Of a stretch of 64,000 nucleotides of DNA, positions 2,382-59,978 are shown piece after piece. The stretch comes from an uncultured bacterium. GTDB lineage: Bacteria; Patescibacteriota; Minisyncoccia; Phycocordibacterales; UBA5272. Numbering within the stretch: position 1 is the stretch's first letter; every line of letters starts with the position of its first letter. The stretch spans positions 1,535 through 65,534 of the forward strand of contig CAIQWN010000045.1 in assembly GCA_903875555.1 (NCBI GenBank), given 5' to 3'. Made by a program: the position numbers and the translations under genes. Under the pieces are notes generated by a model, which saw only the letters and a program-made list of their open reading frames with translations, made no database searches and was not told where the DNA came from.

Positions 2382-3038
2382 TTATGACAGTATCTTCATT
2401 ACAACAGAAAACAAAAAAGGTGCCACATAAGAAAAAATAGTCGAAGCAACAATAATCGCAATAATTAAATACACTGGATTATAAACAACATTCGAAAAAC
2501 TATTTCTCAATCTTGGAAATAATGATTGTAATATAGACATTCCATCAAACGGTGGAATCGGCATCAAGTTAAACAAAGCGAGAGAAATATTTACACCTAT
2601 AATTGTAAACAAGGCACTACTTAATTTCATATCCAACATTCCATTTACAGAAAATACTTTAAAAAATATCATCGCTAATATAGCAAGTAAAATATTAGCG
2701 ATAACACCAGCAGCCGAAACAAATGTTTCTCCATACTTTCCTTCTACATTTCTTATGTTCACTGGTACGGGTTTTGCCCAACCAAGAAACATTCCAGACA
2801 TTGTAAATGAAAGTATCGGCACAAGAATTGAGCCAACAATATCAATGTGTGGAATCGGATTTAAAGTAAGTCGTCCCATTCTATAAGCAGTTTCGTCCCC
2901 TAAGATATAAGCAACGTATCCGTGCGCCACCTCGTGAATAATTATAGAAAATAAAATAACTAATATCGGAAAAATTGACTGAAAAATATTTAATGTGTCT
3001 AACATTCTTAAATAATACCACGAAATGAATTTTGTCAT
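2382..3038 (-). CDS. site-2 protease family zinc metalloprotease (peptidase M50)
   Basis: HEVAHG (HExxH) within a TM helix, polytopic membrane protein, about 218 aa. Confidence 0.75.
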   Translation of the reverse strand: MTKFISWYYLRMLDTLNIFQSIFPILVILFSIIIHEVAHGYVAYILGDETAYRMGRLTLNPIPHIDIVGSILVPILSFTMSGMFLGWAKPVPVNIRNVEGKYGETFVSAAGVIANILLAILAMIFFKVFSVNGMLDMKLSSALFTIIGVNISLALFNLMPIPPFDGMSILQSLFPRLRNSFSNVVYNPVYLIIAIIVASTIFSYVAPFLFSVVMKILS

Positions 3039-3062
3039 TCCTGCGAAAGCAGGAATCTAGTG
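3034..3062. repeat. palindromic dispersed repeat, copy 1 (GTCATTCC-TGC-GAAA-GCA-GGAATCTAGTG)
   Basis: gtcattcctgcgaaagcaggaatctagtg: 8-bp stem with a GAAA loop and conserved flanks gtc / ctagtg. Related copies lie at 5626, 23577, 49601 and 49984. Confidence 0.8.
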
Positions 3063-3162
3063 TGTTTGGTTTTCCTTACTTCGTTCTGCTTACTACACAC
3101 CACTTTTTCTATTGCATCTAAAATAAAATTGTGATAATATACCTAAACTAATCAATAAATCT

Positions 3163-3366
3163 ATGGCAAGCACATGTCCACTATGTCTAAAAGGTTCAAA
3201 AGTTGTTGGAAAATATAGCAACTCTGTTCGTGCTACAAAGTTTAATCCTTGTGGTGATCGTCGCGTATACCCAAACCTACAATGGGCTCGTATTCCAAAT
3301 GGACCTCGTGTAAAGATCTGTACTTCTTGTATGAAGCGCGGTCTACACCTACAGATTAAACTATAA
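3163..3366 (+). CDS. rpmB: probable 50S ribosomal protein L28 (bL28), zinc-ribbon form
   Basis: 67 aa, MASTCPLC...NSVRATKF...PNLQWARIPNGPRVKICTSCMKRG aligns with bL28 (C..TGK..GN.RSHA.N..KR...NLQ.VR....G..KRV.V....LKSG); four Cys. Confidence 0.5.
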   Translation: MASTCPLCLKGSKVVGKYSNSVRATKFNPCGDRRVYPNLQWARIPNGPRVKICTSCMKRGLHLQIKL

Positions 3367-5616: not shown

Positions 5617-5625
5617 TCCTGTTTT

Positions 5626-5654
5626 GTCATTCCTGTGGAAACAGGAATCTAGTG
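5626..5654. repeat. palindromic dispersed repeat, copy 2
   Basis: gtcattcctgtggaaacaggaatctagtg: the stem carries compensatory changes (tgt/aca) relative to copy 1. It lies between convergent gene ends. Confidence 0.8.
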
Positions 5655-7704: not shown

Positions 7705-8079
7705 CTATCTAATATAAAACAAACAAAGTCCAATTACAACCATTACAACACCATAAATATTAACAACCCCTATTATCTTCTTACTTACAAAATTACGTAG
7801 TATTTCTGGTATAAAAATATATCCCAAACCTTTAAGTAAAGTTAACCACGCAAAAATAGTTACGACTGTTCTCCATGAACCCTCCCAAATATTTCCTTGC
7901 TTGATAATCAAAAGTGATGACAAAAAAACTAATATAACCCCAGTAAGATAAACAATCGCCGGATGATCAAAAAAATCTTTTAATAAATTTGGAACTGTTT
8001 TTCCTCTTGAGATAAGAAACCACCCACTAATAACTAAATATATACCTAACAATTTCGCAGCGATAAGTGAAATTTCCAT
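7705..8079 (-). CDS. hypothetical polytopic membrane protein
   Basis: 124 aa, about 4 hydrophobic helices. Confidence 0.4.
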   Translation of the reverse strand: MEISLIAAKLLGIYLVISGWFLISRGKTVPNLLKDFFDHPAIVYLTGVILVFLSSLLIIKQGNIWEGSWRTVVTIFAWLTLLKGLGYIFIPEILRNFVSKKIIGVVNIYGVVMVVIGLCLFYIR

Positions 8080-10470: not shown

Positions 10471-11961
10471 TTATTTCACCTTAAACTGTTTACGAATTTC
10501 TTTGACCTTTTCAATATTTTTTTCTTCCATTTCTTCTTTTCCTTTCTCCCCTAACTTCTTTAACTCTGAAATATCTAAAGAAATCAATTCTTTTGCGCGA
10601 TTATCCAAATATTCTTCTGTGTTTTTCTTTGGGTTTTCCAAAACCTCATCAAACAATGCATGTAAAACAAACCCAATTTTTGGTCCCGGTGTTTCTTGTG
10701 TAACACTCATTATTCTTTCTCCGTTTGTTTTTAGCATTTTTAACGAAATCGGATCTTGAAGTGCTTGTTCGATCATTGATTCATACATTCTTAATCTGTA
10801 CGGTTCTTCTTTTGGTCTTCCTGTCCCTATTCTATCGCATATACGAAGATTAACTAGATCCCATACCTTGTCTTTACCAACATTTACAATCAATCTGCGA
10901 ACAGCACTTATTGTTATTTGTTCTGTGTCACTAAAAAACATATGCCAACGTACCATAATTGATACAGTATCGATTAACTCCTTAGAAAACTTTAATCTTT
11001 CCATAATTACGCGCGTTACACGTGAACCAACAACCTCGTGACCATAAAACGTGTGTTGTTTTGTGTCTTTTATAAATCTACGTGTTTCTGGTTTAGAAAT
11101 ATCATGAAAAATAGCCGCTAAACGAATATGTAATGCAAGTTTTTTATCAGCAGAATGTTGCAATGTCTTTAAATTATGTTCCCAAACATCAAAACTATGT
11201 GCCTGGTTCTGTGTAACCCCTACTCCACGAAGCAACTCCGGAACAATAAATTGAAGTAAATTTAAATCTTTTAATAAAGTAATCCCTCTCATAGGAAAAT
11301 CTGTCATAATAAGTTTAGAAAATTCATCCCTGATTCTTTCACGTGAAATACTATTAAGTAAATTGGAATTCCTTTCCACACTTTCACGTGTAACAGATTC
11401 TAAATCAAAATCAAGCTGACAAACAAAACGAACAGCACGCATAAGTCTGAGAGAATCTTCTTGGAACCTCTTGTCTGGATCACCAACCGCTCTTAAAACC
11501 TTATTTTCTAAGTCCTTTTTACCACCAAACAGATCTACTGTTTCTTGTGAAATAGGATTATACGCCATTGCATTCACAGTAAAATCACGTCTTTTTAGAT
11601 CATCTTCAATATTTTGACTCCACCCTACTTGATCAGGATGTCTTTTATCTGAATATTCCCCTTCTAAACGATATGGAGTAACTTCAACTATTCTTATGGT
11701 CTCATTAGAACAAATAGTTCCTATCTCTTCTCCACAAGTAACAACACCAACTGTACCATATATATTTTCATAGAAAGTTTTTGGAAACAGGCTTATAATT
11801 TGTTCAGGTGTGGCGTTTGTGGTTACATCATAATCTTTTGGTTTTATACCCATAAACAAATCACGAACACAACCACCAACAAGAAAAGCTTCATAGTCAG
11901 CACCTTGAAGTACCGCAATAACCATACTTATCTCTTTTGGTATTTCGTTATTATTTATCAT
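10471..11961 (-). CDS. cca: CCA-adding tRNA nucleotidyltransferase / poly(A) polymerase family with HD domain
   Basis: GGCVRDLFMG..KDYDV head domain and a C-terminal HD (IFHDISKP). Confidence 0.75.
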   Translation of the reverse strand: MINNNEIPKEISMVIAVLQGADYEAFLVGGCVRDLFMGIKPKDYDVTTNATPEQIISLFPKTFYENIYGTVGVVTCGEEIGTICSNETIRIVEVTPYRLEGEYSDKRHPDQVGWSQNIEDDLKRRDFTVNAMAYNPISQETVDLFGGKKDLENKVLRAVGDPDKRFQEDSLRLMRAVRFVCQLDFDLESVTRESVERNSNLLNSISRERIRDEFSKLIMTDFPMRGITLLKDLNLLQFIVPELLRGVGVTQNQAHSFDVWEHNLKTLQHSADKKLALHIRLAAIFHDISKPETRRFIKDTKQHTFYGHEVVGSRVTRVIMERLKFSKELIDTVSIMVRWHMFFSDTEQITISAVRRLIVNVGKDKVWDLVNLRICDRIGTGRPKEEPYRLRMYESMIEQALQDPISLKMLKTNGERIMSVTQETPGPKIGFVLHALFDEVLENPKKNTEEYLDNRAKELISLDISELKKLGEKGKEEMEEKNIEKVKEIRKQFKVK

Positions 11962-11991: not shown

Positions 11992-12063
11992 GCTTTCGTG
12001 GTGAAATGGATATCACATCGGTCTTCGGAACCGTTGTTCCAGGTTCGAATCCTGGCGAAAGCA
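11992..12063 (+). tRNA. tRNA-Arg (anticodon TCG, tentative)
   Basis: Hand-folded cloverleaf: acceptor gctttcg/cgaaagc, D-stem gtga/tcac, anticodon loop cTTCGga, T-arm ccagg-ttcgaat-cctgg. The anticodon stem has a U27-U43 mismatch. No CCA is encoded. Confidence 0.55.
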
Positions 12064-12141
12064 CAAACTCTTTTTAATTTTTATCCTATTTTTTACTTTC
12101 AATTCTCGTATCTCACACAAATACATCGAATTATTCTTTTG

Positions 12142-12212
12142 TGCGGCGTACGAGAATCGAACTCGTGTCTCATCCTTGGCAAGGACGTATTCTACCACTA
12201 AACCAACACCGC
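12142..12212 (-). tRNA. tRNA-Gly (GCC)
   Basis: Minus strand reads GCGGTGTTGGTTTAGTGGTAGAATACGTCCTTGCCAAGGATGAGACACGAGTTCGATTCTCGTACGCCGCA. Confidence 0.85.
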
Positions 12213-12315
12213 GAATAATAATTATATTATCACAAATAAAAGTAAATAAAAAGCTAATATATTGCTACTGTTTATTTTAAAAACCATTAAAAATAAATAG
12301 TATACTATGAAAAAC

Positions 12316-13060: not shown

Positions 13061-13111
13061 TGTCGACACTAGAAATTTTTCTATAAATAAGATATAATCT
13101 ACTGGTGATTT

Positions 13112-13182
13112 GCGGTGTTGGTTTAGTGGTAGAATGCCTGCCTTCCAAGCAGGAGACAAGAGTTCGATTCTCTTACGCCGCA
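13112..13182 (+). tRNA. tRNA-Gly (TCC)
   Basis: GCGGTGTTGGTTTAGTGGTAGAATGCCTGCCTTCCAAGCAGGAGACAAGAGTTCGATTCTCTTACGCCGCA. Confidence 0.85.
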
Positions 13183-13189
13183 CTAATTT

Positions 13190-19329: not shown

Positions 19330-20073
19330 ATGCGATTACATCGCTTCTATACAACACAACCCCTTGGTGAAGAGATTGTTAAAATAGGTGATCAGAATAT
19401 AATAAATCAATTACTTAATGTCTTTCGATTTAAAGAAGGACAGGAGGTTATTTTGTTTTCACAAGATAATTACGATTATCACTATTTGATAGACTCTTAC
19501 ACAAAAAAAGAAATTACTTTTAAATTAAAAAGTAAAGAACTTAGCATAGTTCCACAAAAGAAAGTGACTTTGTATATGTCGCTTGTGAAAAAAGATACTT
19601 TTGAGACCGTTGTTAGAACTTGCACCGAACTTGGTGTTACACAGATTGTTCCAGTTATGTCTGAAAGATGTGAGAAGAAGAATTTAAACGAGGAAAGATT
19701 AAAAATTATATCAATCGAAGCCTCTGAACAGTGTGGACGGACAAATATTCCTATCATTTCACCAATCATTTCTCTAAAAGAAGCTATCGAAGCGCAGATT
19801 GTCGCAGAACAAACGCAGAATAACGCAGAAGGAACACAAACACGCAACATTGTTGCGTCACTTTTTGGTGAGAAAATTAACAGTGAAGATGTAAAAAAGG
19901 TTATTTCCTCACCTGTACTCAATATTTTTGTAGGACCCGAAGGAGGTTTCACCGATAATGAAGAAAAAATGTTTGACGAATCATGTTTCACTAAAATAAA
20001 ACTCACTGACACCATCCTAAAAGCCGACACCGGCGCCCAGGCAATAGTAGTACTTGCGATGATACTTGGTTAG
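19330..20073 (+). CDS. rsmE: 16S rRNA (uracil1498-N3)-methyltransferase
   Basis: 247 aa, MRLHRFY..., RsmE-like length and layout with a C-terminal SPOUT-like GPEGGF motif. Confidence 0.75.
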   Translation: MRLHRFYTTQPLGEEIVKIGDQNIINQLLNVFRFKEGQEVILFSQDNYDYHYLIDSYTKKEITFKLKSKELSIVPQKKVTLYMSLVKKDTFETVVRTCTELGVTQIVPVMSERCEKKNLNEERLKIISIEASEQCGRTNIPIISPIISLKEAIEAQIVAEQTQNNAEGTQTRNIVASLFGEKINSEDVKKVISSPVLNIFVGPEGGFTDNEEKMFDESCFTKIKLTDTILKADTGAQAIVVLAMILG

Positions 20074-20076
20074 TCA

Positions 20077-20092
20077 TTAGGAAGTTATTCGT
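20077..20092. repeat. short repeat ttaggaagttattcgt (also present in both arms of the 38578-38663 hairpin)
   Basis: 16-nt exact match plus a shared downstream tagttaa. Confidence 0.5.
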
Positions 20093-20202
20093 CGATAGTT
20101 AAATAATCTTAAGAGCTATGATATAATTTAATTATGTTTAAAGAGTCAACCTTGGAATGTTGAATATGGAAGAAAAATTTCTATTGAAGATCTTGAGAAT
20201 GA

Positions 20203-20604
20203 GATGGAATAAATTATGAAATAGTTTATGATAGCGAGAAGTTAGATCATATGTTTGCTAATTTAATTGATAACTCTATTAAATATACAGAGAAAGGAGG
20301 TGTGGTTGTTAAATTATATGGAAATGAATTTTATGTTTTGATAGATGTTGTTGATACTGGGCGAGGTATGTCAAAAACTTTTATCGATACTCAACTTTAT
20401 AAAAAATTTGCTCGTGAAGAAAATGTATCTACGAATGTGGATGGTAATGGTCTTGGTATGTATTTCGTAAAAGAGGTTGTTGAATTACACAAAGGAAAGA
20501 TTTCTGTTGTGTCAGAGCAAGGTAAAGGTTCTACATTTACTGTGGCCATACCAACGAAACTTAAGGAGCAGTCTAGTGAGGTTAAAGTAGGGGAAATCAA
20601 GTAA
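20203..20604 (+). pseudogene. histidine-kinase remnant: HATPase_c domain only (N, G1 and G2 boxes), truncated by an upstream in-frame stop
   Basis: NLIDNSIKYT (N box), DTGRGM (G1) and GNGLGM (G2). The frame continues upstream (DGINYEIVYDSEKLDH) to the TGA at 20200-20202; no HisKA H-box or sensor is present. Confidence 0.5.
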
Positions 20605-20622
20605 ACTGTTTTAATACGACAA

Positions 20623-20701
20623 ACAACAAGAGCGACATCGTAAGATGTCGCTCTTGTTGTTTAGTATTCTCTGAGGAGGAATGTTTACGTCAGCCGAGGC
20701 A
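20623..20701. repeat. composite repeat copy 1: hairpin acaacaagagcgacatcgtaagatgtcgctcttgttgt followed by ggaggaatgtttacgtcagccgaggca
   Basis: Near-identical to 23511-23548 plus 23615-23641. The hairpin probably acts as the convergent-gene terminator. Confidence 0.7.
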
Positions 20702-20782
20702 AATATTAGACGATTCCTACGCTTGCTAGTTTTGTATATCTTCGATACCTCTCTAGATACGAAGCTAATTTTTATTCTTTGT

Positions 20783-21220
20783 CTATATCTTTATAGTATC
20801 TATTGTTGTTGAGAGTTCTATCCAATCAGTTTTTTTAAATCCTATACGCTCATACCAAGAAAGTGGAAAAATATTTTCTTCTGGCGACAACATACTAATA
20901 CTAAAAATATTATTTTTACGAGCTTCATTCACTGTATGTTTTAATAAAGATTTTCCTACGCCATTATTTCTATGCCTATCAATAACCTGCAACGACTCAA
21001 CAATTAATAAGTCACCGTGTTTACTTGTTCCAAGTTTACTAAAAATAGCTCCGAGAATCTCGTTATCTTTATCAACTGCCATAAAACAAAAATCTGGACT
21101 AATCAAATATGATTGCATAAGATATTTTTTAGCATTTTCAATACTCCACTCTGGAAACGAATCAACAAAAGATTCTGTTATTTTATCTAAAGCACGAGGG
21201 TCAAACTTTATTATTTTCAT
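20783..21220 (-). CDS. GNAT family N-acetyltransferase
   Basis: Acetyl-CoA motif R.NNGVGKSLL. Confidence 0.7.
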   Translation of the reverse strand: MKIIKFDPRALDKITESFVDSFPEWSIENAKKYLMQSYLISPDFCFMAVDKDNEILGAIFSKLGTSKHGDLLIVESLQVIDRHRNNGVGKSLLKHTVNEARKNNIFSISMLSPEENIFPLSWYERIGFKKTDWIELSTTIDTIKI

Positions 21221-21222
21221 AT

Positions 21223-22335
21223 TTAATTAGTTATTTTTTTAAAGACTAGTTCCATTTTAGAGGTAATCTGTCCTAGAAGTTCTTCTTGGGTTTTATTTTT
21301 ATGTTTTATAGAAAAATATTTTTTTATTTCATTAACTGTGTCAGGTCTGGCAGTGATTTCTGATTTTACACATTCAAACTTATATCCAGACTGTTTTAGT
21401 TTATCATTAGCGTGAAATAAAATCTTTTCTTTATATTTTTCTGGACTCATCGGACAGAAAGCATCTGAATCAGGATCAGGAATTAAATAACGTTCGTCTA
21501 TTTCTTTCCAATCATTAGCAAAACTAATAATTGTTCCATTTTTAAAATCAGAAACATAATTTCTATAGTGAAGCATTAACTCGGCAGCAGTACCAAATGG
21601 CATTATTACACTTGCTTGGCCTTCTGACAGAATAGGATAATCATCTTGTTTATTTCTTTTGTCTTTCATTTTTTCAACTTCATCTTTATTCCAAGTGTCA
21701 AATGTTCTAAATCTTTCTCTAAAATAACTATAAAAATCTTTTACATCTTGGTCTAAAAAAGATATTTCAATCAGGTCGTTAATCTCTGGCCCAGCAAAAT
21801 CACGCAAAAGCAAGACACCGTTATTAGATAAGGTCATAGAGGCTTCCTGAATCGCTTTTATCCAAGCTATTTTTCCATCTTCTACATAACTATATATTTC
21901 ATGCATTATTGCAGACAGAACAATACCATCCATATAATCATTGGTATATTTGAAAGGCATTTCTACGGCACTACTTTGCACTAACAAAGCCCGCACATTG
22001 TGTTCTGTTAAATATTTACGTGCTGATGATAGGGCTTTTTTAGAAAGATCAACTCCTATTATTTCTGTATGTTTTTCTTTAAACAATTCATATAAAACTC
22101 TTAATTCTAATCCTCCTCCTACACCAACAGAGGCTATCGAATGTGGATTTTTTAAAAAATTAATTATTGGTTCTAATTTTTTTACAAAATTTAAAAATTC
22201 TTCCTCAGAATATTTATTTATCGCTTCAAAGTATTGATTAGGCGCATTGTCTAAATGTTGCCTTGCTGATTCAATATCTATATGTGTTTCTTTTTGTGTC
22301 TCTACATATTCTTGAGTGGAGTTTATTTTTTCCAT
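21223..22335 (-). CDS. class I SAM-dependent methyltransferase with C-terminal extension
   Basis: Motif I VGVGGGLEL, motif II IIGVDLS. Confidence 0.55.
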   Translation of the reverse strand: MEKINSTQEYVETQKETHIDIESARQHLDNAPNQYFEAINKYSEEEFLNFVKKLEPIINFLKNPHSIASVGVGGGLELRVLYELFKEKHTEIIGVDLSKKALSSARKYLTEHNVRALLVQSSAVEMPFKYTNDYMDGIVLSAIMHEIYSYVEDGKIAWIKAIQEASMTLSNNGVLLLRDFAGPEINDLIEISFLDQDVKDFYSYFRERFRTFDTWNKDEVEKMKDKRNKQDDYPILSEGQASVIMPFGTAAELMLHYRNYVSDFKNGTIISFANDWKEIDERYLIPDPDSDAFCPMSPEKYKEKILFHANDKLKQSGYKFECVKSEITARPDTVNEIKKYFSIKHKNKTQEELLGQITSKMELVFKKITN

Positions 22336-22384
22336 TTTGTTTAAGGTTGTTTATATGATACAGTCTAACTTATATATTATAACC

Positions 22385-23032
22385 ATGACAAGAAGTCTAA
22401 AACAAGTACTCATTAAAATAGCCGAGGAGTTACAATCAAGGTCTGATCCTTCACATGATTTTCAACATGTCCTGAGAGTGCTTAACCTGTCTTTAAAATT
22501 AGCAAAAAAAACTAACGCTGATATAGATATAATTATTCCAGCTGTGCTTTTTCATGACATTGTTATCTATCCTAAAAACTCACCTGAAAGTAAAAATGAG
22601 AATACCGAAAGTTCTATTGTCGCTGAAAAAATATTAAATGGTATTAAAAAATATCCCAAAGAAAAAATACCTAGAGCGGTGTCTTGTATAAAAGAGTGTT
22701 CATTTTCTAAAGGACTTAAAGCTAGCAGTTTAGAATCAGAAATCCTTCAAGATGCTGACCGTCTTGAAGCCACTGGCGCAATATCAATTATGCGCACATT
22801 TTCTTCTGGAGGACAAATGAATAAACCTTTTTACCCATCTGAAGACCCGTTGTGTAAAAAAGGTTCTGTTAGATTTAGATCAAGTATAGATCTTTTTTAT
22901 GAGAGATTACTCGTAGTTAAAGATACAATGCACACAGAGTATGCAAAAAAAATAGCTGAACAGAGGACTAATTTTCTAAAAAAATTTTTAAAACAACTAG
23001 AAAAAGAACTGAAAGAATCAAAGGTGATGTAA
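22385..23032 (+). CDS. HD-domain phosphohydrolase
   Basis: H..QHVLRV and LFHDIV metal-binding motifs. The ORF-track start at 22316 overlaps the divergent gene, so the first non-overlapping ATG at 22385 was chosen. Confidence 0.65.
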   Translation: MTRSLKQVLIKIAEELQSRSDPSHDFQHVLRVLNLSLKLAKKTNADIDIIIPAVLFHDIVIYPKNSPESKNENTESSIVAEKILNGIKKYPKEKIPRAVSCIKECSFSKGLKASSLESEILQDADRLEATGAISIMRTFSSGGQMNKPFYPSEDPLCKKGSVRFRSSIDLFYERLLVVKDTMHTEYAKKIAEQRTNFLKKFLKQLEKELKESKVM

Positions 23033-23049
23033 GTCAATAAATAAAAATA

Positions 23050-23499
23050 GTGACGTGGTATAATTCAAATATGAGCCTAGAAATTACTCCACAATATTCG
23101 CATGTTGGTGTGTATGGTGTTTACATTAAAAATAATTCAGTGTTGTTAATCAAAAAATCACGCGGACCATACAAAGGAATGTATGATTTACCAGGAGGAA
23201 GAATTGAGCAAAGGGAGACAATTGAAGAAGGTCTAAGAAGAGAATTTATTGAAGAAGCTGGTGGAGAAATAACGAACCAAACATTTTTATCCGAGAATGA
23301 ATACACCGCCCCTGATTATAAAGGTGAACCATTTCGTCACTTTGGTACATATTTTACAGTCTCTCTTTCATTAGATAATATTAAGATTGATCCTGATGGT
23401 CACGATTCTCTTGGTGCAGAGTTTATTAGCCTTGATAAACTTGATCAAGTAGAAATCTCTCCGATAGTTAAACCAATGATATTGAAAGCAATTTCTTAA
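23050..23499 (+). CDS. NUDIX hydrolase
   Basis: Nudix box GGRIEQRETIEEGLRREFIEEAG. Confidence 0.75.
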   Translation: MTWYNSNMSLEITPQYSHVGVYGVYIKNNSVLLIKKSRGPYKGMYDLPGGRIEQRETIEEGLRREFIEEAGGEITNQTFLSENEYTAPDYKGEPFRHFGTYFTVSLSLDNIKIDPDGHDSLGAEFISLDKLDQVEISPIVKPMILKAIS

Positions 23500-23510
23500 A
23501 TTTAACACAA

Positions 23511-23641
23511 AACACAAGAGCGACATCGTTAGATGTCGCTCTTGTGTTTTATATTTTTTATTTTTAAATTCTAGACACTGGATTCCCGCTTTCGCGGGAA
23601 TGACACCCAATAACGGAGGAATGTTTACGTCAGCCAAGGCA
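23511..23641. repeat. composite repeat copy 2 (hairpin 23511-23548; ggaggaatgtttacgtcagccaaggca 23615-23641), interrupted by palindromic repeat copy 3 (23577-23605)
   Basis: Same two modules as 20623-20701, but the spacer is 66 bp instead of 14 bp and contains cactggattcccgctttcgcgggaatgac. Confidence 0.7.
23577..23605. repeat. palindromic dispersed repeat, copy 3 (reverse orientation; stem attcccgc/gcgggaat)
   Basis: cactggattcccgctttcgcgggaatgac: compensatory T>C and A>G changes keep the 8-bp stem. Confidence 0.8.
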
Positions 23642-23754
23642 GTATTTGGATGGAATTCGAAGTTGTTTTTGTAAAAATATTATGAGGTGTACAAATCGTA
23701 CAGTGAAGAATATTTTTACAAAAACAACAAGAAGTACGCCAAATAATGGCTCGG

Positions 23755-24807
23755 TTATTTATTACCCTCTAAAAATTTGAGAACCTTCTCATTTGTAAGA
23801 ACTTGAAATATATATCCACGGGCGCGTTCCTCATCTAAATCCTGAATTGTAGCAAGTAGGCGAGTTAGTTCTGTTTCAATCTCTTCGTCTGTTGGTTTGA
23901 TTTTTTCAACCAAAGAAATTTCTGCAAGAACAAGTTGTGAAAGGGTTCTCTTTTCTGCGTTTAATCTCCAGTCCTTTTTCAATTCTTCTTCTGTCTTCTT
24001 TGAGTGAGTTAAATAATCTTCCCACTTGCCACCGAAACGAGCAACATCATTTTTCATTTGACCAAGCATTCTTTCGAGTTCTTGCTCGATCATCACCTCT
24101 GGAATTTCTGCTTTACTTTCTTTGATCAAATTTTCGATTATCGCTGTACGAATTTTTTCTGTGTTCTTTTGTGACTTTTCTAATTTTAGATTTTCAGAAA
24201 TTTTCTTTTTCAAATCTTCAAGAGATTTAAATTCTTCGCCGAATGATTGTGCAAATTCGTCGTTCAATTCTGGAAGATTTTTTTCTTCGTCAGTATGTTC
24301 ACATTTTTCTCCATCTTTGTGTTCGTGATCATGATGGTGTTTTTCTGCGCGACCCTTGCGAAGTTCTTCAAGAACATCTGCGATGTCTTTATCAGTTACA
24401 GTTTCCATTGTATGTTCCTTAGATTTTTCTTCTCCAATTTTTTTGTAATTAGGAAGTGTGACCTCTGGCATAACAGGTACAGTGATAGTTAATTCCAAAT
24501 CATTTCCTTTGGCTAATTTTTTAATCACAACATTTGGATCTGCGACTGGAATTATTTTGTGTTCCTTGATTGCTTCCATATAAGCATCACGAAGTGCAAG
24601 GTTCGCCATCTCTTCTAATAGAATCATGTCTCCATAATTTTTTGTTATAGCATCTTCTGGAGCGTTGCCTTTTCTGAAGCCATCAACAGAAACAACTTCT
24701 TGAATTTTTTTAAATCCTTTGTCGTGATATTTTTCAAAATCTTTTGAAGGTATTACAATATCAAATTGAACTTCACTTTTTTCTAATTTTTTAATTTCTA
24801 TTTTCAT
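23755..24807 (-). CDS. tig: trigger factor (short form)
   Basis: GFRKGNAP ribosome-binding signature in the N-terminal domain; 350 aa. Confidence 0.75.
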   Translation of the reverse strand: MKIEIKKLEKSEVQFDIVIPSKDFEKYHDKGFKKIQEVVSVDGFRKGNAPEDAITKNYGDMILLEEMANLALRDAYMEAIKEHKIIPVADPNVVIKKLAKGNDLELTITVPVMPEVTLPNYKKIGEEKSKEHTMETVTDKDIADVLEELRKGRAEKHHHDHEHKDGEKCEHTDEEKNLPELNDEFAQSFGEEFKSLEDLKKKISENLKLEKSQKNTEKIRTAIIENLIKESKAEIPEVMIEQELERMLGQMKNDVARFGGKWEDYLTHSKKTEEELKKDWRLNAEKRTLSQLVLAEISLVEKIKPTDEEIETELTRLLATIQDLDEERARGYIFQVLTNEKVLKFLEGNK

Positions 24808-29343: not shown

Positions 29344-29370
29344 TAAAAAGAAAACTGGAAATTGCTCACA

Positions 29371-29483
29371 TTTAAAAAGTCAGAATTTGTTTTAGATGCA
29401 AGGAGCCTAGAAAATTTTTAGTGAGACGTATTTAAACATACGGCGAATTAAAAATTTTTGTAGCGACACAGCAGATGAAATAA
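29371..29483. terminator. convergent-gene terminator region: 17-bp inverted repeat (ttaaaaagtcagaattt / aaattctgactttttaa) with nested hairpins
   Basis: Read directly between pgk (+) and xth (-). Confidence 0.4.
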
Positions 29484-29494
29484 ATTCTGACTTT

Positions 29495-30250
29495 TTAAAA
29501 CTCTAGAACCACAGGACAGTGATCACTTCCAAACATATTATCTAATATATTTGCTTTCTTTATTTTCTTTTCTAAAACTTTTGAGATGAAAATATAATCA
29601 ATACGCCAGCCAACATTTCTGTCTCTTGCTCTGGTTTGCATATCCCACCATGTATATTTTATTTTATCTCCATTTATAAAACGAAATGTATCAGTAAAAT
29701 CCTTCACAAAATTTGCAAGACGAGAACGTTCGTCATCTGTACAACCAAGCTTTCCTTTATTTTCTTTTGGACGAGCAAGATCAATGTCGGCAACTGTCGC
29801 ATTTATATCTCCACAAAAAATAACTGGTTTTATTTTTTCTAATTTCTTGGCACGTTTTAAAAATTGATCATAATAATCTAGTTTATATAAAAAATGTTCA
29901 TGCGACTTTCCTCCGTTTGGAAAATAACAATTCATAAAAACAAAATCTTTGAAATATAAAGTAACAAGCCTGCCCTCCATATCCATTTTATCTTTACCTA
30001 ATCCATACTCAACCTTCTCTGGTTTTTCTTTACAATAAACTGCCACACCAGAATATCCTTTTCTAATTTTTGAACTATCGAAATAAGAAAAATATCCTTT
30101 TATGTTTATAATTTCATCAGTGAGTTGCATAGGTTCTGCCTTTGTTTCTTGAATAGCCAATATATCAGGAGACAATTTCAAAACCTCTTTCCAGTTTTCT
30201 TTTTTTGTTACAGCTCGTATTCCGTTCACATTCCAAGAAATAATTTTCAT
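29495..30250 (-). CDS. xth: exodeoxyribonuclease III (AP endonuclease)
   Basis: MKIISWNVNG..., ExoIII/APE1 family length and motifs. Confidence 0.9.
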   Translation of the reverse strand: MKIISWNVNGIRAVTKKENWKEVLKLSPDILAIQETKAEPMQLTDEIINIKGYFSYFDSSKIRKGYSGVAVYCKEKPEKVEYGLGKDKMDMEGRLVTLYFKDFVFMNCYFPNGGKSHEHFLYKLDYYDQFLKRAKKLEKIKPVIFCGDINATVADIDLARPKENKGKLGCTDDERSRLANFVKDFTDTFRFINGDKIKYTWWDMQTRARDRNVGWRIDYIFISKVLEKKIKKANILDNMFGSDHCPVVLEF

Positions 30251-35153: not shown

Positions 35154-35294
35154 TATTTTTTGTCTCACTTTTTATTTCAAAAATGTTTCAGGTTCAAGGC
35201 GTAAGAAATTTTTATGACTAAAATGTACATGTCGTACATTGCAGGAAGGAAAATTTCTTACAACGAAAAAGATGAAATGTTCTTGGAACAAAAA

Positions 35295-36275
35295 CTAAAA
35301 AGGATTAACGGCTCCACGCACCTCAAAGTGTAAATGAGGTCCTGTTGAATGACCAGTATTTCCTGTTGCACCAATAACCTCTCCTTGTGATACTGTTTGA
35401 CCAATTGAAACATTTACTTTACTTAAATGAGCATAAACTGTTTGTATATTATTGTCGTGAGCAATAATAATCATGTTTCCATAACCTCCATTATAACCAC
35501 TTGTTTTTGTAAGAATAATTCTTCCGTTACCAGACGCCATAACAGGTGATCCCGTAGGTATACCGATATCAATACCATTATAACCATGCAGACCTTGTGT
35601 TTTTCTTCCGCCAGTAACAGGCCTTATCAAAAATCCATCCGCAAAAGTATTAGAATAAGATTTTACTAATTTACTATAACCATTTGCTAATTTAGAACTT
35701 GATGTTTTTGGTACAGACACACTTATTTCACCTTCCGGAACAAGAATAACATCGCCAACTGTAAGTTCTGTGTCTTTTGTTATTCCGTTAAATTTGGACA
35801 CATCATTAATATCTGCTTTATACTTTTTAACAATAGATAAAAGTGTTTCTCCTTTTTTAACTGTGTGTTTAATACCAGTTATCGGCAAAATAACTATTGT
35901 GTCTCCAACAGTAAGACTGTTTGATTTCAAATCATTCGCCCACACAATTGTATTTTTAGAAACACCAAACATTTTTGCAACACTCGCAAGAGTATCTCCC
36001 TTTTTAACTTCATAAACAGAAATCTGATCTGTTGTAGGAAAATCAACATCCTCTGTAGACAATCGAAGCATGCCGGTAGTTGCAGATAAACTATTAGAAG
36101 TTGAAGCGTCTTCTATAACAGCTTCATTTAATTCTTGAGCATCAACCACGTTTGGTTTCAAAACATCCATCATTTGAGAATTTTTGTTTGAATCTTCTTC
36201 CGATCCACTACCCCCAACAATTATAAATTTAACCCTATCTACTAAATTAGAAAAAACGGAAGCCTCCGCTTGCAA
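35295..36275 (-). CDS. LysM-repeat plus M23 family metallopeptidase (cell-wall hydrolase)
   Basis: Two LysM repeats (KKGDTLASVAKMFGVS; KKGETLLSIVKKY) and M23 motifs (GIDIG...; HLHFEV). The annotated start is a TTG; a signal-peptide-like sequence continues in-frame upstream. Confidence 0.8.
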   Translation of the reverse strand: MQAEASVFSNLVDRVKFIIVGGSGSEEDSNKNSQMMDVLKPNVVDAQELNEAVIEDASTSNSLSATTGMLRLSTEDVDFPTTDQISVYEVKKGDTLASVAKMFGVSKNTIVWANDLKSNSLTVGDTIVILPITGIKHTVKKGETLLSIVKKYKADINDVSKFNGITKDTELTVGDVILVPEGEISVSVPKTSSSKLANGYSKLVKSYSNTFADGFLIRPVTGGRKTQGLHGYNGIDIGIPTGSPVMASGNGRIILTKTSGYNGGYGNMIIIAHDNNIQTVYAHLSKVNVSIGQTVSQGEVIGATGNTGHSTGPHLHFEVRGAVNPF

Positions 36276-38276: not shown

Positions 38277-38576
38277 ATGGATCAAGAAATACTATACAAA
38301 CAAATAATAGAGGAATGGGAACTAGAAAATGTACCAGAAGATGATAGAACAGAAATTCTAGAAGAAATTGCTAAAACAATACATACACAATTTTTACTTG
38401 ATGCTTATAACGTGTGTGGTGAAGAAAATTTCAAAGCACTAGAGGCTTCTGTTAATATGGGAAATGAGTTTTATGAAACAACCCTCAAACACACAATTCC
38501 AAACTACGAAGAAATTTTTCAGAGAGCAAAAGAAAAAGTGTACATCTCCTTCAAAAAACAAGCACACCTTAGTTAA
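38277..38576 (+). CDS. hypothetical protein, paralog of 18439-18840
   Basis: About 45% identity over a ~70-aa shared block (see 18439-18840). Confidence 0.5.
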   Translation: MDQEILYKQIIEEWELENVPEDDRTEILEEIAKTIHTQFLLDAYNVCGEENFKALEASVNMGNEFYETTLKHTIPNYEEIFQRAKEKVYISFKKQAHLS

Positions 38577-38577
38577 T

Positions 38578-38663
38578 CGTTAGGAAGTTATTCGTTATTA
38601 GTTAACACAAGTCCAGTTTCGCTTTGCGAAACTGGACTTACGACTAACGAATAACTTCCTAAC
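38578..38663. repeat. 86-bp perfect composite hairpin (outer 20-bp stem cgttaggaagttattcgtta, inner hairpin agtccagtttcgc-tttgc-gaaactggact); likely terminator
   Basis: The outer arms contain the ttaggaagttattcgt motif shared with 20077-20092. Confidence 0.6.
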
Positions 38664-38695
38664 GAACAACGAAACGATTATGTTAAACTCTTTTA

Positions 38696-49149: not shown

Positions 49150-49587
49150 ATGCAATTTAGGGTTCCACAATTCATTGATGTTGAAGATAAAATAATCGGC
49201 CCACTTACATTAAAACAGTTTGCTTATATTTTAGGTGCTGGTGGTTTTGCTTTTATTATTTGGACTTTTATAAGCATAAAAATTCTAGCGGTTATACTTA
49301 TAATTCCTCTTTCTGGATTATTTTTGTCGTTTGCTTTTCTAAAAGTAAACGGTAGGCCATCTATAGATGTTTTGGAACATGCTTTTAAATATTTTACTAA
49401 TGCTAAAATTTATACATGGAAACAACCAATACCAGAAACAAGAATAAAACAACCTGTTTCTCATTCAGAAAAAGCTGTTGCTGATATATCAAGAGAACTA
49501 TTAACAAAAAAAGTTGATTCTAACAAACTACACGATATATCATTTGGTCTTGATGTGTTAGACCGTAACCCACAAGAAAAAGAATAG
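49150..49587 (+). CDS. PrgI/TcpE (VirB3-like) family small membrane protein
   Basis: VPQFIDVEDKIIGPLTLKQFAYILGAGG followed by two TM helices matches the PrgI family N-terminal pattern. Confidence 0.45.
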   Translation: MQFRVPQFIDVEDKIIGPLTLKQFAYILGAGGFAFIIWTFISIKILAVILIIPLSGLFLSFAFLKVNGRPSIDVLEHAFKYFTNAKIYTWKQPIPETRIKQPVSHSEKAVADISRELLTKKVDSNKLHDISFGLDVLDRNPQEKE

Positions 49588-49600
49588 ACCGACTCCCTCT

Positions 49601-49662
49601 GTCATCCCTGCGAAGGCCGTCCACAGGTATCGACTCCTAATCAGTCGATCAGGGATCTGGTG
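49601..49662. repeat. palindromic dispersed repeat, copy 5 (long variant with internal 30-bp insert that is itself palindromic)
   Basis: gtcatccctgcgaagg...atcgactcctaatcagtcgat...cagggatctggtg. Confidence 0.65.
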
Positions 49663-49672
49663 TATTTTTGAA

Positions 49673-49957
49673 CTATAAATCAAAATATAAATCTCTCCAT
49701 TGTAAATTTGTCTTTTCAATTAATTTTACTTTCCATTCTCTTTTCCATGCTTTAAGTTGTTTTTCTTTTTTAATAGCACTTTCAATATTTTCTGTTTGTT
49801 CATACCAAACTAAATTAGTTATGTTGTATTCTTTTGTAAAACCTTCAACTACTTTTTCTTTGTGTTCATAAACCCTTCTTTTTAAATCATTGGTAACACC
49901 CACATATAAAGTTCCGTATCTTTTACTAGCTAAAATATATACACAGCATTGTTTCAT
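49673..49957 (-). CDS. small GIY-YIG nuclease family protein
   Basis: Starts at MKQCCVYILASKRYGTLYVGVTNDLKRRVYEHK...GFT (GIY-YIG core). The ORF-track N-terminal extension to 50068 runs through repeat copy 4. Confidence 0.7.
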   Translation of the reverse strand: MKQCCVYILASKRYGTLYVGVTNDLKRRVYEHKEKVVEGFTKEYNITNLVWYEQTENIESAIKKEKQLKAWKREWKVKLIEKTNLQWRDLYFDL

Positions 49958-49983: not shown

Positions 49984-50012
49984 ACTGGATCCCTGCCTTC
50001 GCAGGAATGACA
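49984..50012. repeat. palindromic dispersed repeat, copy 4 (reverse orientation)
   Basis: cactggatccctgccttcgcaggaatgac. Confidence 0.8.
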
Positions 50013-57087: not shown

Positions 57088-58428
57088 ATGGATTATCAAC
57101 AGTTATGGAACAGTGCTTTATCTCAAGTAGAACTTGAACTATCTAGAGTTAATTTTAATACTTGGTTTAAGAACACACGTATAGTTGACTATAAAGACGG
57201 TGAAGTGATTATTGGTGTTCCGAATGAATTCGTAAAGGATTGGCTTACTCAAAAATATCATAAATTTATTTTACGCATTCTTCGTTCTATACACGAAAGT
57301 GTGCGCTCTGTTTCCTTTTCTGTTGTTAAACCCGAATCCCTACAAAAAAAAGCTCAGAGTATACAAATTTCTGGAAACAACACACTTCCTCTTAACGATC
57401 TCTATGTAAATAAGGACGACGGACTTAATCCTAGGTATAATTTTGATAATTTTGTTGTTGGTTCTTTTAATGATATTGCTTTTGCTACCTCTCAGGCGGT
57501 AATAAACAATCTTGGGGTTTTATATAATCCTTTTTTTGTGTACGGAAACACAGGGCTCGGAAAAACACACATGATGCAAGCGATTGGAAATACAATCAAA
57601 AAAAACCATCCTGAGAAAAAAATCTTTTTTACTTCTTTGGAAAAATTTTATATGGATCTTGTTAATTCAACAAACCTAAACAAAATAAACAGTTTTAAAG
57701 AAAAATACAGAAAATATGATGTTTTTATTTTAGACGACATACAGTTTATAACAGGTAAAGAAAAAACCCAGGACGAACTTTTCCATTTATTTAATTCTTT
57801 ATACGAAACAAATAAGCAGATTATATTTTCTTCTGACCGCCACCCTAATTTTATAACGGGACTAGAAGACAGACTTAAATCGAGATTCAGTCAGGGGATG
57901 ATTGTTGATGTGTCTTTACCTGATTTTGAATCACGGTTTGCAATAATTAAAACAAAAACCACTGAGTTTAAAGATAAAATCCCCCAAGAGGTGCTCGAAT
58001 ACGTTGCCGAAACAGTGCACGGAAACATAAGGGAACTTGAGGGTGTTATGAATCTCTTAATTAATTATATAAACATAAAAAAACAGGCAATTTCTTTAAA
58101 CGATGCTAAAGTTTTATTAAAAAATAGCATTCGTTCTCGAAAAAATGTTTCTGTTCCAGAAATAGTAAAAGTTATTTGTGATTATTATAATATTTCTGAT
58201 TCTTTTATCTATAATAAAACAAGAAGGAAAGATGTTGTTAAGCCTCGCCAAATAATTATGTATATACTTAGAGAGGTTTTTGATATTTCTTACCCTGTTA
58301 TAGGGGAAAGACTTGGTGGAAGAGATCACACAACAGTAATCCATTCCTATGAAAAAATTAAGACGAATATTAAAACAAATCCTGAATTAAATAAGGAAAT
58401 TGAAGATATTAAAAACCTTATAAACTAG
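57088..58428 (+). CDS. dnaA: chromosomal replication initiator DnaA
   Basis: Walker A GNTGLGKTH, AAA+ and C-terminal DNA-binding domain. The first ATG is at 57088; the ORF-track 57046 start is a TTG. Confidence 0.9.
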   Translation: MDYQQLWNSALSQVELELSRVNFNTWFKNTRIVDYKDGEVIIGVPNEFVKDWLTQKYHKFILRILRSIHESVRSVSFSVVKPESLQKKAQSIQISGNNTLPLNDLYVNKDDGLNPRYNFDNFVVGSFNDIAFATSQAVINNLGVLYNPFFVYGNTGLGKTHMMQAIGNTIKKNHPEKKIFFTSLEKFYMDLVNSTNLNKINSFKEKYRKYDVFILDDIQFITGKEKTQDELFHLFNSLYETNKQIIFSSDRHPNFITGLEDRLKSRFSQGMIVDVSLPDFESRFAIIKTKTTEFKDKIPQEVLEYVAETVHGNIRELEGVMNLLINYINIKKQAISLNDAKVLLKNSIRSRKNVSVPEIVKVICDYYNISDSFIYNKTRRKDVVKPRQIIMYILREVFDISYPVIGERLGGRDHTTVIHSYEKIKTNIKTNPELNKEIEDIKNLIN

Positions 58429-58651
58429 GGCTGTTAATAAACCTGTTAATAAGATAATAATATCTTATTAACAACCCCTCTCTTATTATAAAAATTTTTT
58501 AATTTTTATAATATATTAACAAATTAAAAAAGCTTGTTATTTTTATTTTAAAATTAAAACCTTATATTTCCTTTGTTTTGTTAGGGTTTTTAATATATAC
58601 ACATAATTAACATCACTATACTTATTATTATCTTTTATATATACTATTACT
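58429..58651. other. candidate oriC/DUE: AT-rich dnaA-dnaN intergenic region with repeated TGTTAATAA motifs and a 13-bp perfect inverted repeat
   Basis: tgttaataa x2 direct (58432, 58444) plus inverted ttattaaca (58465); IR tgttaataagata-ataa-tatcttattaaca at 58444-58473; then about 150 bp of nearly pure A/T. Confidence 0.4.
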
Positions 58652-59743
58652 ATGAAATTCGAATGTAAAAGTAGAAACCTGATTAATACCATTAATCAAA
58701 TAAGTAGAGCTCGTAGTAAAAGTTTATCCCAAGAATATCTTCAAGATATATATCTACAACTAGAAGAACACCAACTAACTTTAAGGGCCACTAACTTAGA
58801 AATTTTTTGTGAAAAAAGTATTTCTGTTAAAGGAATACAAAACGGAAAATGTGTTTTAAAAGGAGAGACTTTAATAAAAATAACAAACTTTTTACAAAAA
58901 GAAGAAATTAATTTAATTTGCGAATTAAATGAAAACATTTTTATAATAAAAAGTGAAAAAGAAAATATAGAAATAAAAACAATACCTTTTGAAGATTTTC
59001 CAGCCTTACCACAACAAGGGGAGAGTGTTGGCGAAATAAAAACTGAGAATTTAATATCTTTAATTAAAAGTGTTTCGTTTTGTTGTGCAACAACAGAAAT
59101 AAAACCAGAAATCTCATCAGTTTTTATTTATTCAAAAGAAGACAATCTTTATTCTGTTGCAACAGACTCATATCGATTAGCGGAAAAACACATAAACAAT
59201 GAATCAAAATTAAATATTTCTATTTTAATTCCTCAAAAAAACATAAGCGAAATAGTTTCTATTTTATCAGAAGAAGAGGGTGTTATTAATATTTATAAAA
59301 ACGAAGGACTATTAACATTAAATATTAACAGTTTAACTTTATGTATAAATATAATATTAGGACAATTCCCAGACTACAAACAACTTTTTCCAAAAGAATA
59401 TACAACAACTTGTTATTTAAACAAAAACGAATTACAAAAAGCTTTAACATTAACAACTTGTTTTACAGAACAATACTCACAAGTTAAATTTTTAATAGAA
59501 GATGAAAAACTAACACTACATAGTAAAAATGAACAAATAGGACAAGTGACAAATATTGTAGACATTAAAAAAGAAGGGGAAAATATAGAAGTAAACTATA
59601 ACAATAAATATTTTTTAGAAGTAATACCACACCTAGCAAAAGAAAAAATAAAACTATCTTTTACAACAGCACAAAAACCTGTGTTTTTACAAAGTGAAAG
59701 CGATATAAGTTTCGTTTATTTACTTATGCCACTAAACAGATAA
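58652..59743 (+). CDS. dnaN: DNA polymerase III beta sliding clamp
   Basis: 363 aa with a three-domain beta-clamp layout, directly downstream of dnaA. Confidence 0.9.
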   Translation: MKFECKSRNLINTINQISRARSKSLSQEYLQDIYLQLEEHQLTLRATNLEIFCEKSISVKGIQNGKCVLKGETLIKITNFLQKEEINLICELNENIFIIKSEKENIEIKTIPFEDFPALPQQGESVGEIKTENLISLIKSVSFCCATTEIKPEISSVFIYSKEDNLYSVATDSYRLAEKHINNESKLNISILIPQKNISEIVSILSEEEGVINIYKNEGLLTLNINSLTLCINIILGQFPDYKQLFPKEYTTTCYLNKNELQKALTLTTCFTEQYSQVKFLIEDEKLTLHSKNEQIGQVTNIVDIKKEGENIEVNYNNKYFLEVIPHLAKEKIKLSFTTAQKPVFLQSESDISFVYLLMPLNR

Positions 59744-59746
59744 AAT

Positions 59747-59977
59747 ATGGACAACTCACTTTTTAAAAAACATCTAAAAATTTTTAATGAAAGAGATAAA
59801 GATAAAAACACAATAATAGAACATATTAAAAACAAAACAAAAATTGTTTTAAATGAAAACGAGATAAAAATAGAAAAAAAGAAGGTGTCTTTAAATATTT
59901 CTTCAATTAAAAAAGCAGAGCTATATAAACACAAACTAGAAGAAAGACTAGAAGAAATTGGTTTTTATTATAAATAA
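59747..59977 (+). CDS. hypothetical small protein
   Basis: 76 aa, K/E-rich. Confidence 0.3.
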   Translation: MDNSLFKKHLKIFNERDKDKNTIIEHIKNKTKIVLNENEIKIEKKKVSLNISSIKKAELYKHKLEERLEEIGFYYK

Positions 59978-59978
59978 T

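Follow-up and report, generated by a model that had tools for sequence, protein, structure and literature searches.

A tail-and-terminator repeat around an accessory gene block beside tig in a Patescibacterium

Results

The repeat and its surroundings

We analysed a 64-kb stretch of DNA from an uncultured Patescibacterium (Paceibacteria/Nomurabacteria type; contig CAIQWN010000045.1, positions 1,535 to 65,534; hereafter the window), which has a G+C content of 32%. Here we describe a repeat of two short modules, a hairpin and a 27-nt motif, which occurs twice, as direct repeats around ~2.9 kb of accessory genes, between tig, the trigger factor gene, and rsmE. Both copies are situated between convergent genes. 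Copy 1 lies in the order histidine-kinase (HK) remnant (+), hairpin 1, motif 1, GNAT acetyltransferase gene (-), and copy 2 in the order NUDIX gene (+), hairpin 2, a palindrome, motif 2, tig (-). The nearest relatives by trigger factor are metagenome-assembled genomes (MAGs) at 57-69% identity; their loci, and the other loci compared, carry L numbers below. The features of the region are as follows.

20251..20604, +: HK remnant, HATPase_c domain only, with stop codons upstream
20621..20662 (core 20626-20657), both strands: hairpin module copy 1, a terminator-like palindrome between the HK remnant (+) and the GNAT gene (-)
20675..20701, -: 27-nt motif copy 1, apparently a detached duplicate of the last 11 nt of a basal stem and a 16-nt tail, with no element body
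20783..21220, -: GNAT acetyltransferase gene (cargo), in a block ~80% identical in nucleotide sequence to L209 and L211
21223..22335, -: class I S-adenosylmethionine (SAM) methyltransferase gene (cargo), a rare type with 47 homologs at E<=1e-20
22316..23032, +: HD-domain protein gene (cargo), assigned by Pfam and block comparison
23050..23499, +: NUDIX hydrolase gene (cargo), outside the HD-methyltransferase-GNAT block known elsewhere
23509..23550, both strands: hairpin module copy 2, which would serve the tig 3' element as intrinsic terminator and is an ortholog of the relatives' terminators
23615..23641, -: 27-nt motif copy 2, made up of 11 nt from the 3' strand of the basal stem and the 16-nt single-stranded tail of the tig element
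23615..23757, -: rod-like hairpin element of ~141 nt, beginning at the tig stop codon TAA (23755-23757) and kept after tig in L004, L007 and L008
23755..24807, -: tig (trigger factor), from Pfam-based gene annotation

The core hairpin, ACAAGAGCGACATCGTWAGATGTCGCTCTTGT, is found at 20626-20657 and 23514-23545, and the motif, GGAGGAATGTTTACGTCAGCCRAGGCA, at 20675-20701 and 23615-23641. At <=3 mismatches the window holds no third copy of either module, the number expected from shuffles being 0 for both. Between the copies, the motif is identical at 26/27 positions and the terminator stems are identical. The original prediction, made from the letters of this stretch, that a two-module repeat is present with a palindromic element in one copy is thus borne out: each module occurs exactly twice, and the spacers, 17 and 69 nt long when measured from the core hairpin, differ by 52 nt that include palindrome copy 3. 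The hairpin starts it gave (20623 and 23511) are correct once a 3-nt extension of the palindrome is included, as are its spacers of 14 and 66 bp, which are measured from the extended palindrome, and the search for further copies of the modules that it proposed found no others in the window.

The extra sequence is, however, not a single insert as had been supposed. Alignment of the two loci resolved the 52 nt into two indels, one of ~39 nt, made up of the 28-nt palindrome plus 9 nt preceding and 2 nt following it, and one of ~12-14 nt in an A/T-rich spacer; the target-site duplication looked for at the boundaries was not visible. Outside both modules, similarity between the two loci was not above chance. 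On this ground, and because of the two indels, we rejected a contiguous segmental duplication with one insertion.

The hairpin module

The hairpin stem has 19 pairs, 8 of them G-C, plus a T-run. A terminator scan called both copies intrinsic-terminator-like on both strands, in a window with 6 such sites versus 1.3 expected. An alignable hairpin, ACAAAAGCG..CC-TTAC-GG..CGCTTTTGT, closes the tig region of seven related loci, indicating that hairpin 2 is the orthologous terminator. We predict the hairpin to be an intrinsic terminator working in both directions, with orthologs in the tig terminators of related Paceibacteria. It is like Rho-independent terminators in having a G+C-rich stem of 14-19 pairs, a 4-nt loop, flanking A-runs and T-runs, and a position between convergent genes, but its two copies are identical in stem sequence, unlike ordinary terminators of unrelated genes.

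The contigs identical to the window, of which only short ones were found, end inside the hairpin loop. An independent assembly of the same organism, L001 (ENA ERZ18648719), ends at 3231, exactly in the loop of hairpin 2, a break point consistent with a repeat or palindrome that confuses assemblers.

The element after tig

The downstream motif had been read on the plus strand, but its columns covary as a stem on the opposite (tig) strand. A fuzzy search found the motif also 113-120 nt past tig in L004 and L008, and RNAalifold, applied to a four-species alignment (window, L004, L007, L008), gave 45 pairs, 14 of them with compensatory changes. The G-U pairs in the alignment favour the tig strand, and the whole tig 3' region folds with z = -11.6. 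On the minus strand, the downstream motif closes a ~141-nt rod-like element, of which it forms the last stem strand and the tail. The minus-strand order of the native locus is tig, the ~141-nt rod element with its 16-nt tail, the palindrome (an NTS/SRM hairpin, see below), an A-rich spacer and the intrinsic terminator. The two loci had been taken for before and after states of one site; instead, copy 2 is the native 3' end of an element and copy 1 appears to be a detached duplicate.

At gathering scores, Rfam 15 contained no family matching the element: the window gave 4 tRNAs only, and five loci from gut bacteria and the candidate phyla radiation (CPR) gave no match. The corresponding E-value search gave weak chance-level matches only, mostly to plant microRNA models. 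Readings of the element as SRP (signal recognition particle) RNA, 6S RNA, a hammerhead-like RNA or an integron attC were dropped, since the conserved motifs were absent on inspection and there was no Rfam match. The element end sequences gave no match in the searchable literature, where a search for palindromic repeats of Patescibacteria turned up other topics only. Judging from its sequence, the element would be a conserved structured single-strand element of a new family, one with no description in Rfam 15 or the searchable literature.

Relatives of the element in the window and beyond

We used two models of the element, R1, built from the four tig copies only, and R2, built from ten sequences and run unfiltered over the whole window. 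R1 found a second window member at 29356-29496(-) with 46 bits, as well as a copy after tig in L082 (58 bits) and second copies in L004 (31.5 bits) and L006 (28.7 bits). R2 added 35162-35289(-) at 26 bits. These window members were delimited as follows.

29356..29501, -: second family member, which starts with the stop codon of an exonuclease III-like gene and fills the convergent intergenic region
35155..35299, -: probable third family member, beginning at the TAG of a LysM/M23 peptidase gene; 26 bits, fold z -5.2

All three window members, after tig and the exonuclease III-like and LysM/M23 peptidase genes, begin at a stop codon and fill a convergent intergenic region. The region of repeat copy 1 scored only 10.6 bits with R2, did not fold (z +1.0) and had no similarity beyond the motif; the low score and missing fold led us to reject it as a full third element. 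The 12 nearest Paceibacteria loci have ~1 member per 4-7 kb and more distant loci have none. Occupancy varies by species: at the 3' end of the pyrophosphatase (PPase) gene, the rod element is present in L006, L085, L087 and L088 and absent from the window.

A degenerate end-to-end pattern gave >120 loci, mainly on long human-gut contigs. R1, built without that pattern, scored the gut copies at 35-54 bits, and paralogs and gut copies together at 35-78 bits. The MnmA of a gut host has its named relatives among Clostridia and Christensenellales MAGs, and seven uncultured gut phage records bear the element; a plasmid search with the gut element gave no match. Compensatory changes were found at 18/28 pairs in 10 CPR copies and at 12/21 pairs in 30 CPR and gut copies, and all of the latter share the basal stem, a U-C mismatch that is conserved, and a GUAC hairpin at the apex.

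The gut copies are strongly oriented with respect to genes. Among the 94 with enough upstream sequence, 51 are preceded on the same strand by an open reading frame (ORF) of at least 100 aa ending at the element 5' end; for 43 of these 51, the stop codon is the TAA of the element itself. At the element 3' end, only 1 of 91 has an ORF that ends there on the other strand. Judged by translated sequence, the upstream genes are housekeeping genes (PEP carboxykinase, RNase J, RNase E/G, MnmA, P-type ATPase).

The element has terminal inverted repeats, AAAAGTCA(T)AAWTT ... AAWTT(C)TGACTTTT, with TA at both ends; because TA is self-complementary, a target-site duplication would be inseparable from an extension of the inverted repeat. 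Since no parent with the same ends and a transposase occurs in the fetched loci, where ends 1.7-2.2 kb apart enclose ordinary genes, an autonomous transposon bearing the element ends was rejected. The downstream flanks are enriched in GTCATTGCGAGG...GCAATC hairpins, with one lying within 65 nt of ~18/125 copies versus ~0.4 expected (manual count). In the gut loci (L089-L208), the further modules after the element include GGGGACCCCGCGGGATACTGTGTACCCGTGGGG hairpins, AATTCTCGCCGTTTT stretches, tandem or partial element ends and GTCATTGCGAGG...GCAATCTCCCGGAAGGG hairpins, forming mosaics.

The palindrome and a candidate Ssn gene

In Neisseria, the NTS repeat, CGTCATTCCCGCGMAVGCGGGAATCYRG, encloses the shorter dRS3 repeat and is bound by SsnA, a 94-aa GIY-YIG nuclease, solely as single-stranded DNA and not as RNA, with cleavage 3 nt upstream; the Ssn system modulates natural transformation, and ssnA genes are typically flanked by the repeat (Chenal et al. 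2025, PMC11893778). Palindrome copy 3 agrees with this consensus at 27/28 positions. It fits the search pattern for the Ssn-related motif (SRM), HGTCWYN(0-2)YYVSBRHN(0-5)WNVSBRGN(0-2)RNCYNB, for which 0.07 chance matches are expected per window, and includes the dRS3 core ATTCCC-N8-GGGAAT at 23582-23601; the hairpin was also predicted in the fold. Copies 1 and 2 of the palindrome fail the strict pattern. The palindrome is, in its predicted identity, an SRM, a family described in 2025. The window contains the following copies, together with a candidate nuclease gene.

3033..3060, +: palindrome copy 1, an SRM hairpin with 3 NTS mismatches, one compensatory pair among them
5625..5652, +: palindrome copy 2, an SRM hairpin with 6 NTS mismatches that takes up the 44 nt between two convergent genes
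23578..23605, -: palindrome copy 3, an NTS/SRM hairpin, TGTCATTCCCGCGAAAGCGGGAATCCAG, which departs from the NTS consensus at 1 position
49601..49656, +: inverted SRM whose loop holds a nested hairpin, a short way downstream of the ssn-like gene, giving an SRM-gene-SRM layout
49673..49957, -: gene for a 94-aa single-domain GIY-YIG protein, a candidate Ssn nuclease (PF01541, E 3.5e-14)
49985..50012, -: palindrome copy 4, an SRM hairpin that lies 27 nt ahead of the start codon (ATG) of the ssn-like gene

Residues Y7, Y18 and E65 of the candidate nuclease align with Y6, Y17 and E64 of Neisseria meningitidis SsnA, the residues mutated there. Ssn nucleases are small single-domain GIY-YIG proteins of the cd10448 type, to which the candidate would belong. 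The likeness to the NTS/Ssn system (PMC11893778) extends to the orientation-defining GTC before and C after the palindrome, which copy 3 has in addition to the dRS3 core, to the flanking of the 94-aa GIY-YIG gene by repeats, as in NTS-ssnA-NTS, and to the variable gene content that the repeats adjoin. The differences are the host, a Patescibacterium (Paceibacteria) whose phylum is not named in the main text of that paper, and the number of copies, only 5 in 64 kb, three of which deviate at 3-6 positions, partly in compensatory pairs.

A PrgI-family gene (a conjugation/type IV secretion family) at 49150-49587 adjoins the ssn-like gene and its SRMs. A weak Rfam E-value match to the Francisella small RNA (sRNA) FtrB (20.8 bits), at 23564-23625 (-), overlaps the SRM; the string GCGGGAATGAC is contained in a Francisella sRNA paper (PMC3091763), which raises the possibility that some annotated sRNAs simply contain SRM hairpins.

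Filled and empty sites

A multi-species alignment from the element tail to the terminator shows that window copy 2, L008, L082 and L085 carry the SRM and that L004, L006, L007 and window copy 1 lack it. The flanks are alignable at the orthologous tig locus in filled and empty species. The A-rich spacer is present also in the SRM-less L004 and L006, and the L007 spacer is short, as in copy 1; the existence of SRM-less loci both with and without the A-rich spacer indicates that the SRM is a discrete ~30-nt unit at the tail-terminator junction. A second filled/empty pair is found in the PPase-tig spacer, which is filled in L085 and empty in its close relative L087, where a 9-nt stretch resembling the SRM 3' end is kept. 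SRMs of L085 lie also in the NusA-PPase and PPase-tig spacers; L085 has three SRMs where the window has one. No target-site duplication for the SRM was recognisable at the tig junction or at the L085/L087 site.

These alignments suggest that different lineages have gained and lost the SRM, as a unit of its own, at this junction. The original prediction had held the palindrome to be an insert into pre-existing sequence; a discrete unit, present or absent across relatives, it is, but the window pair cannot decide the direction of the change. The filled state is common to relatives at 58-69% trigger-factor identity, so the SRM may predate the near-identical duplication, and the difference is accounted for just as well by a deletion in copy 1.

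After the pyrophosphatase gene, L085 has the rod element followed by an SRM (7798-7970), and L087 has the rod element without an SRM (7835-7981). The order stop codon, rod element, SRM thus recurs at a second locus in L085.

The gene block and its slot

In the relatives, the gene order is NusA, PPase, tig, element and terminator, followed by DoxX and RsmE on the other strand. In several of them, variable cargo separates the terminator from DoxX: an ABC ATPase and YafQ/RelB in L082, a 210-aa ORF in L085, ~7 kb in L008, and 2-3 kb in L009, L010 and L012. The content of this tig-rsmE slot differs in every relative. The window lacks DoxX and has in its place the NUDIX, HD, methyltransferase and GNAT genes and the truncated HK gene. 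In L082, the YafQ/RelB cassette lies between 59-nt direct repeats (11300-11358 and 12005-12063; 83% identical), each with a terminator hairpin, a repeat-flanked toxin-antitoxin cassette that parallels the repeat-bounded cargo of the window.

The HD-methyltransferase-GNAT block (20766-23022) has, besides its ~80% nucleotide identity to L209 and L211, 69% identity to L212. In these three loci its neighbours are PemK toxin, SecD or RelA_SpoT genes, and neither the motif nor the hairpin is present; the loci are SRM-rich. The block is, as the comparison of these loci suggests, a portable three-gene cassette in Paceibacteria. Two methyltransferase homologs (P0250 and P0262) also bear a NUDIX domain (PF00293), a hint that the adjacent NUDIX gene of the window is functionally linked. 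L209 has a 52-aa HATPase_c remnant (2911-3069) beside its GNAT gene, in the other orientation than in the window.

Discussion

The arrangement at tig is probably the outcome of a duplication of the tail and terminator of the tig element around the cargo block, with the palindrome being an NTS/SRM repeat that has a candidate Ssn gene in the same window. The tail and terminator would have been duplicated as cargo entered, or was rearranged at, the tig-rsmE hot spot by homology-driven recombination, possibly through a Campbell-type integration or an unequal exchange that used the element 3' end and terminator. Since no recombinase is present and no empty site is found for this lineage, the duplication step is one that we infer. 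Several results weigh against this explanation. There is no integrase or transposase in or beside the 2.9-kb block, in which Pfam gave GNAT, methyltransferase, HD and NUDIX domains only. No relative closer than that with the best trigger factor (69% identical) was found and none exceeds 70%, so that an empty cargo site for the window lineage is lacking. Two large DNA collections (genome contigs and metagenome contigs) did not contain the exact 21-mer of the motif, NCBIfam and PDB sequence searches with the GIY-YIG protein were uninformative, and gene conversion between two terminator regions could likewise have produced two short, nearly identical modules with a scrambled spacer.

Other explanations of the two copies start from the same observations. 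The palindrome might have transposed into copy 2 after the tail-terminator duplication, leaving copy 1 as the unoccupied target. Copy 1 indeed lacks the SRM despite the near-identical motif (26/27) and identical stems; SRM occupancy shifts between close relatives, as in the PPase-tig spacer of L085 and L087; L085 has three SRMs versus one in the window; and the indel seen across species at the tig locus roughly matches the SRM in length (28-30 nt). Even so, we regard transposition as unlikely: the junction is already filled in L008, L082 and L085 (58-69% trigger-factor identity), which calls for independent hits on a hot spot or an insertion predating the duplication, the difference consists of two indels (~39 nt and ~13 nt) instead of one, the 9 extra nt 5' of the SRM are left unexplained, no target-site duplication is visible, and the 9-nt remnant in L087 that resembles the SRM 3' end suggests a deletion, not a virgin site. 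Still less probable is that copy 1 is what remains of an independent element once located after the GNAT gene, its 3' end and terminator having been homogenised with the tig locus by gene conversion, so that the repeats would be no by-product of cargo insertion. The minus strand upstream of motif 1 reads GCAAGCGUAGGAAUCGUCUAAUAUUU, loosely like the family 3' half GCUUCGCGUAUAUUCAUCAAUUU, the tig-only model matches marginally at 20675-20746 (18.6 bits, E 0.06), and family elements follow many genes in the relatives. However, the broader model reaches only the 10.6 bits given above, the region does not fold into a rod, the GNAT gene in L209, L211 and L212 is followed by neither element nor motif, and a conversion tract would be expected to bring the SRM along. 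The original prediction also saw in the 27-nt motif the start of a short ORF (MFTSA...), with GGAGG, 4 nt and ATG; a small protein gene with its own ribosome-binding site, duplicated with the terminator, is very improbable. Both copies do have GGAGG and ATG, and the ATG is kept in L004 and L008, but a single base separates the two (GGAGGAATG), the ORFs of 43, 17 and 24 codons are unrelated after residue 7, L007 has ACG in place of ATG, and the same bases pair with the element 5' strand, with compensatory changes.

For the rod element itself, we put forward as a tentative possibility that the ~145-nt element represents an undescribed, cross-phylum and strand-specific class that docks on stop codons in sense, often supplies the TAA, and builds mosaic 3' ends with Ssn-type hairpins that would also serve as recombination points for cassettes. 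A rather doubtful alternative is that it has no RNA role and is a DNA-level repeat, such as a miniature inverted-repeat transposable element (MITE) or a single-stranded DNA hairpin for a nuclease or transposase, whose position after stop codons reflects target choice only. This would fit the terminal inverted repeats with TA at both ends, the multiple copies, including nested and partial ones, the occupancy that varies between species, the presence in gut phage records, and the physical association with SRM-type hairpins, which are active only as single-stranded DNA. What speaks against it is the near-strict sense orientation (in the gut, 51/94 at the 5' end versus 1/91 at the 3' end on the other strand), the pairing that orthologous copies keep by compensatory changes, along with the U-C mismatch, and the G-U pairs that favour the mRNA strand; moreover, no transposase was found between distant element ends in the fetched loci.

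As an imperfect palindrome of 125-147 nt, present in many copies in transcribed gene-end regions, the rod element resembles the ERIC/IRU, Correia (CREE/NEMIS), RUP, BOX and REP/BIME/NIME repeats. Correia elements have TA at both ends, as the rod element does, and BIMEs and NIMEs form mosaics with other short hairpin modules, again as the rod element does. It differs from ERIC-, Correia- and REP-type repeats in being near-strictly in sense and abutting the stop codon, its own TAA often being the stop, and in being common to Patescibacteria, gut Clostridia and gut phages; further differences, with the families compared by description only, are that its orthologs covary and that no parent insertion sequence was found. 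Integrating genomic islands duplicate the 3' end of a tRNA or tmRNA gene, and Neisseria has 'minimal mobile elements'. Both recall the window, where direct repeats from the 3' end of a structured element flank accessory genes and the tig-rsmE slot between conserved genes holds different cassettes by lineage. Compared with tRNA and tmRNA islands, the window block has no integrase, the repeat includes the terminator, the duplicated element is not a tRNA, and the mechanism is inferred.

The strict sense orientation against stop codons in two phyla is, in our view, the most interesting result. If the proposed class is real, the near-absolute orientation would point to an RNA function at translation termination or the mRNA 3' end, or to a gene-end-targeting insertion mechanism new for bacterial repeats. 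The motif first flagged proved to be the tip of an unannotated element family common to CPR bacteria and abundant gut Clostridia, and gut metatranscriptomes that are already available would allow a direct test of the orientation bias in the gut (51 at the 5' end versus 1 at the 3' end on the other strand). Direct repeats round a portable cassette suggest how streamlined genomes may exchange accessory genes without dedicated recombinases. As for NTS/SRM repeats outside Neisseria, the window shows a near-canonical NTS together with a candidate Ssn gene in a Patescibacterium with a tiny genome; the alignable filled and empty SRM sites across species could be used to look for a rule of insertion or deletion.

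Minor observations in the window

The G+C content falls to 24% at 58001-60000, versus about 32% in the rest of the window. Inverted repeat arms of 93 nt (12138-12230 and 13094-13186; 83% complementary) cover tRNA-Gly(GCC) (-) and tRNA-Gly(UCC) (+) within a four-tRNA cluster. A further hairpin repeat is probably the first composite repeat of the original prediction: a palindrome of ~105 nt at 38569-38673, after the gene at 38277-38576, starts at the stop codon, and its 5' arm alone recurs at 20065-20102 (84% identical), directly after the rsmE stop at 20073.

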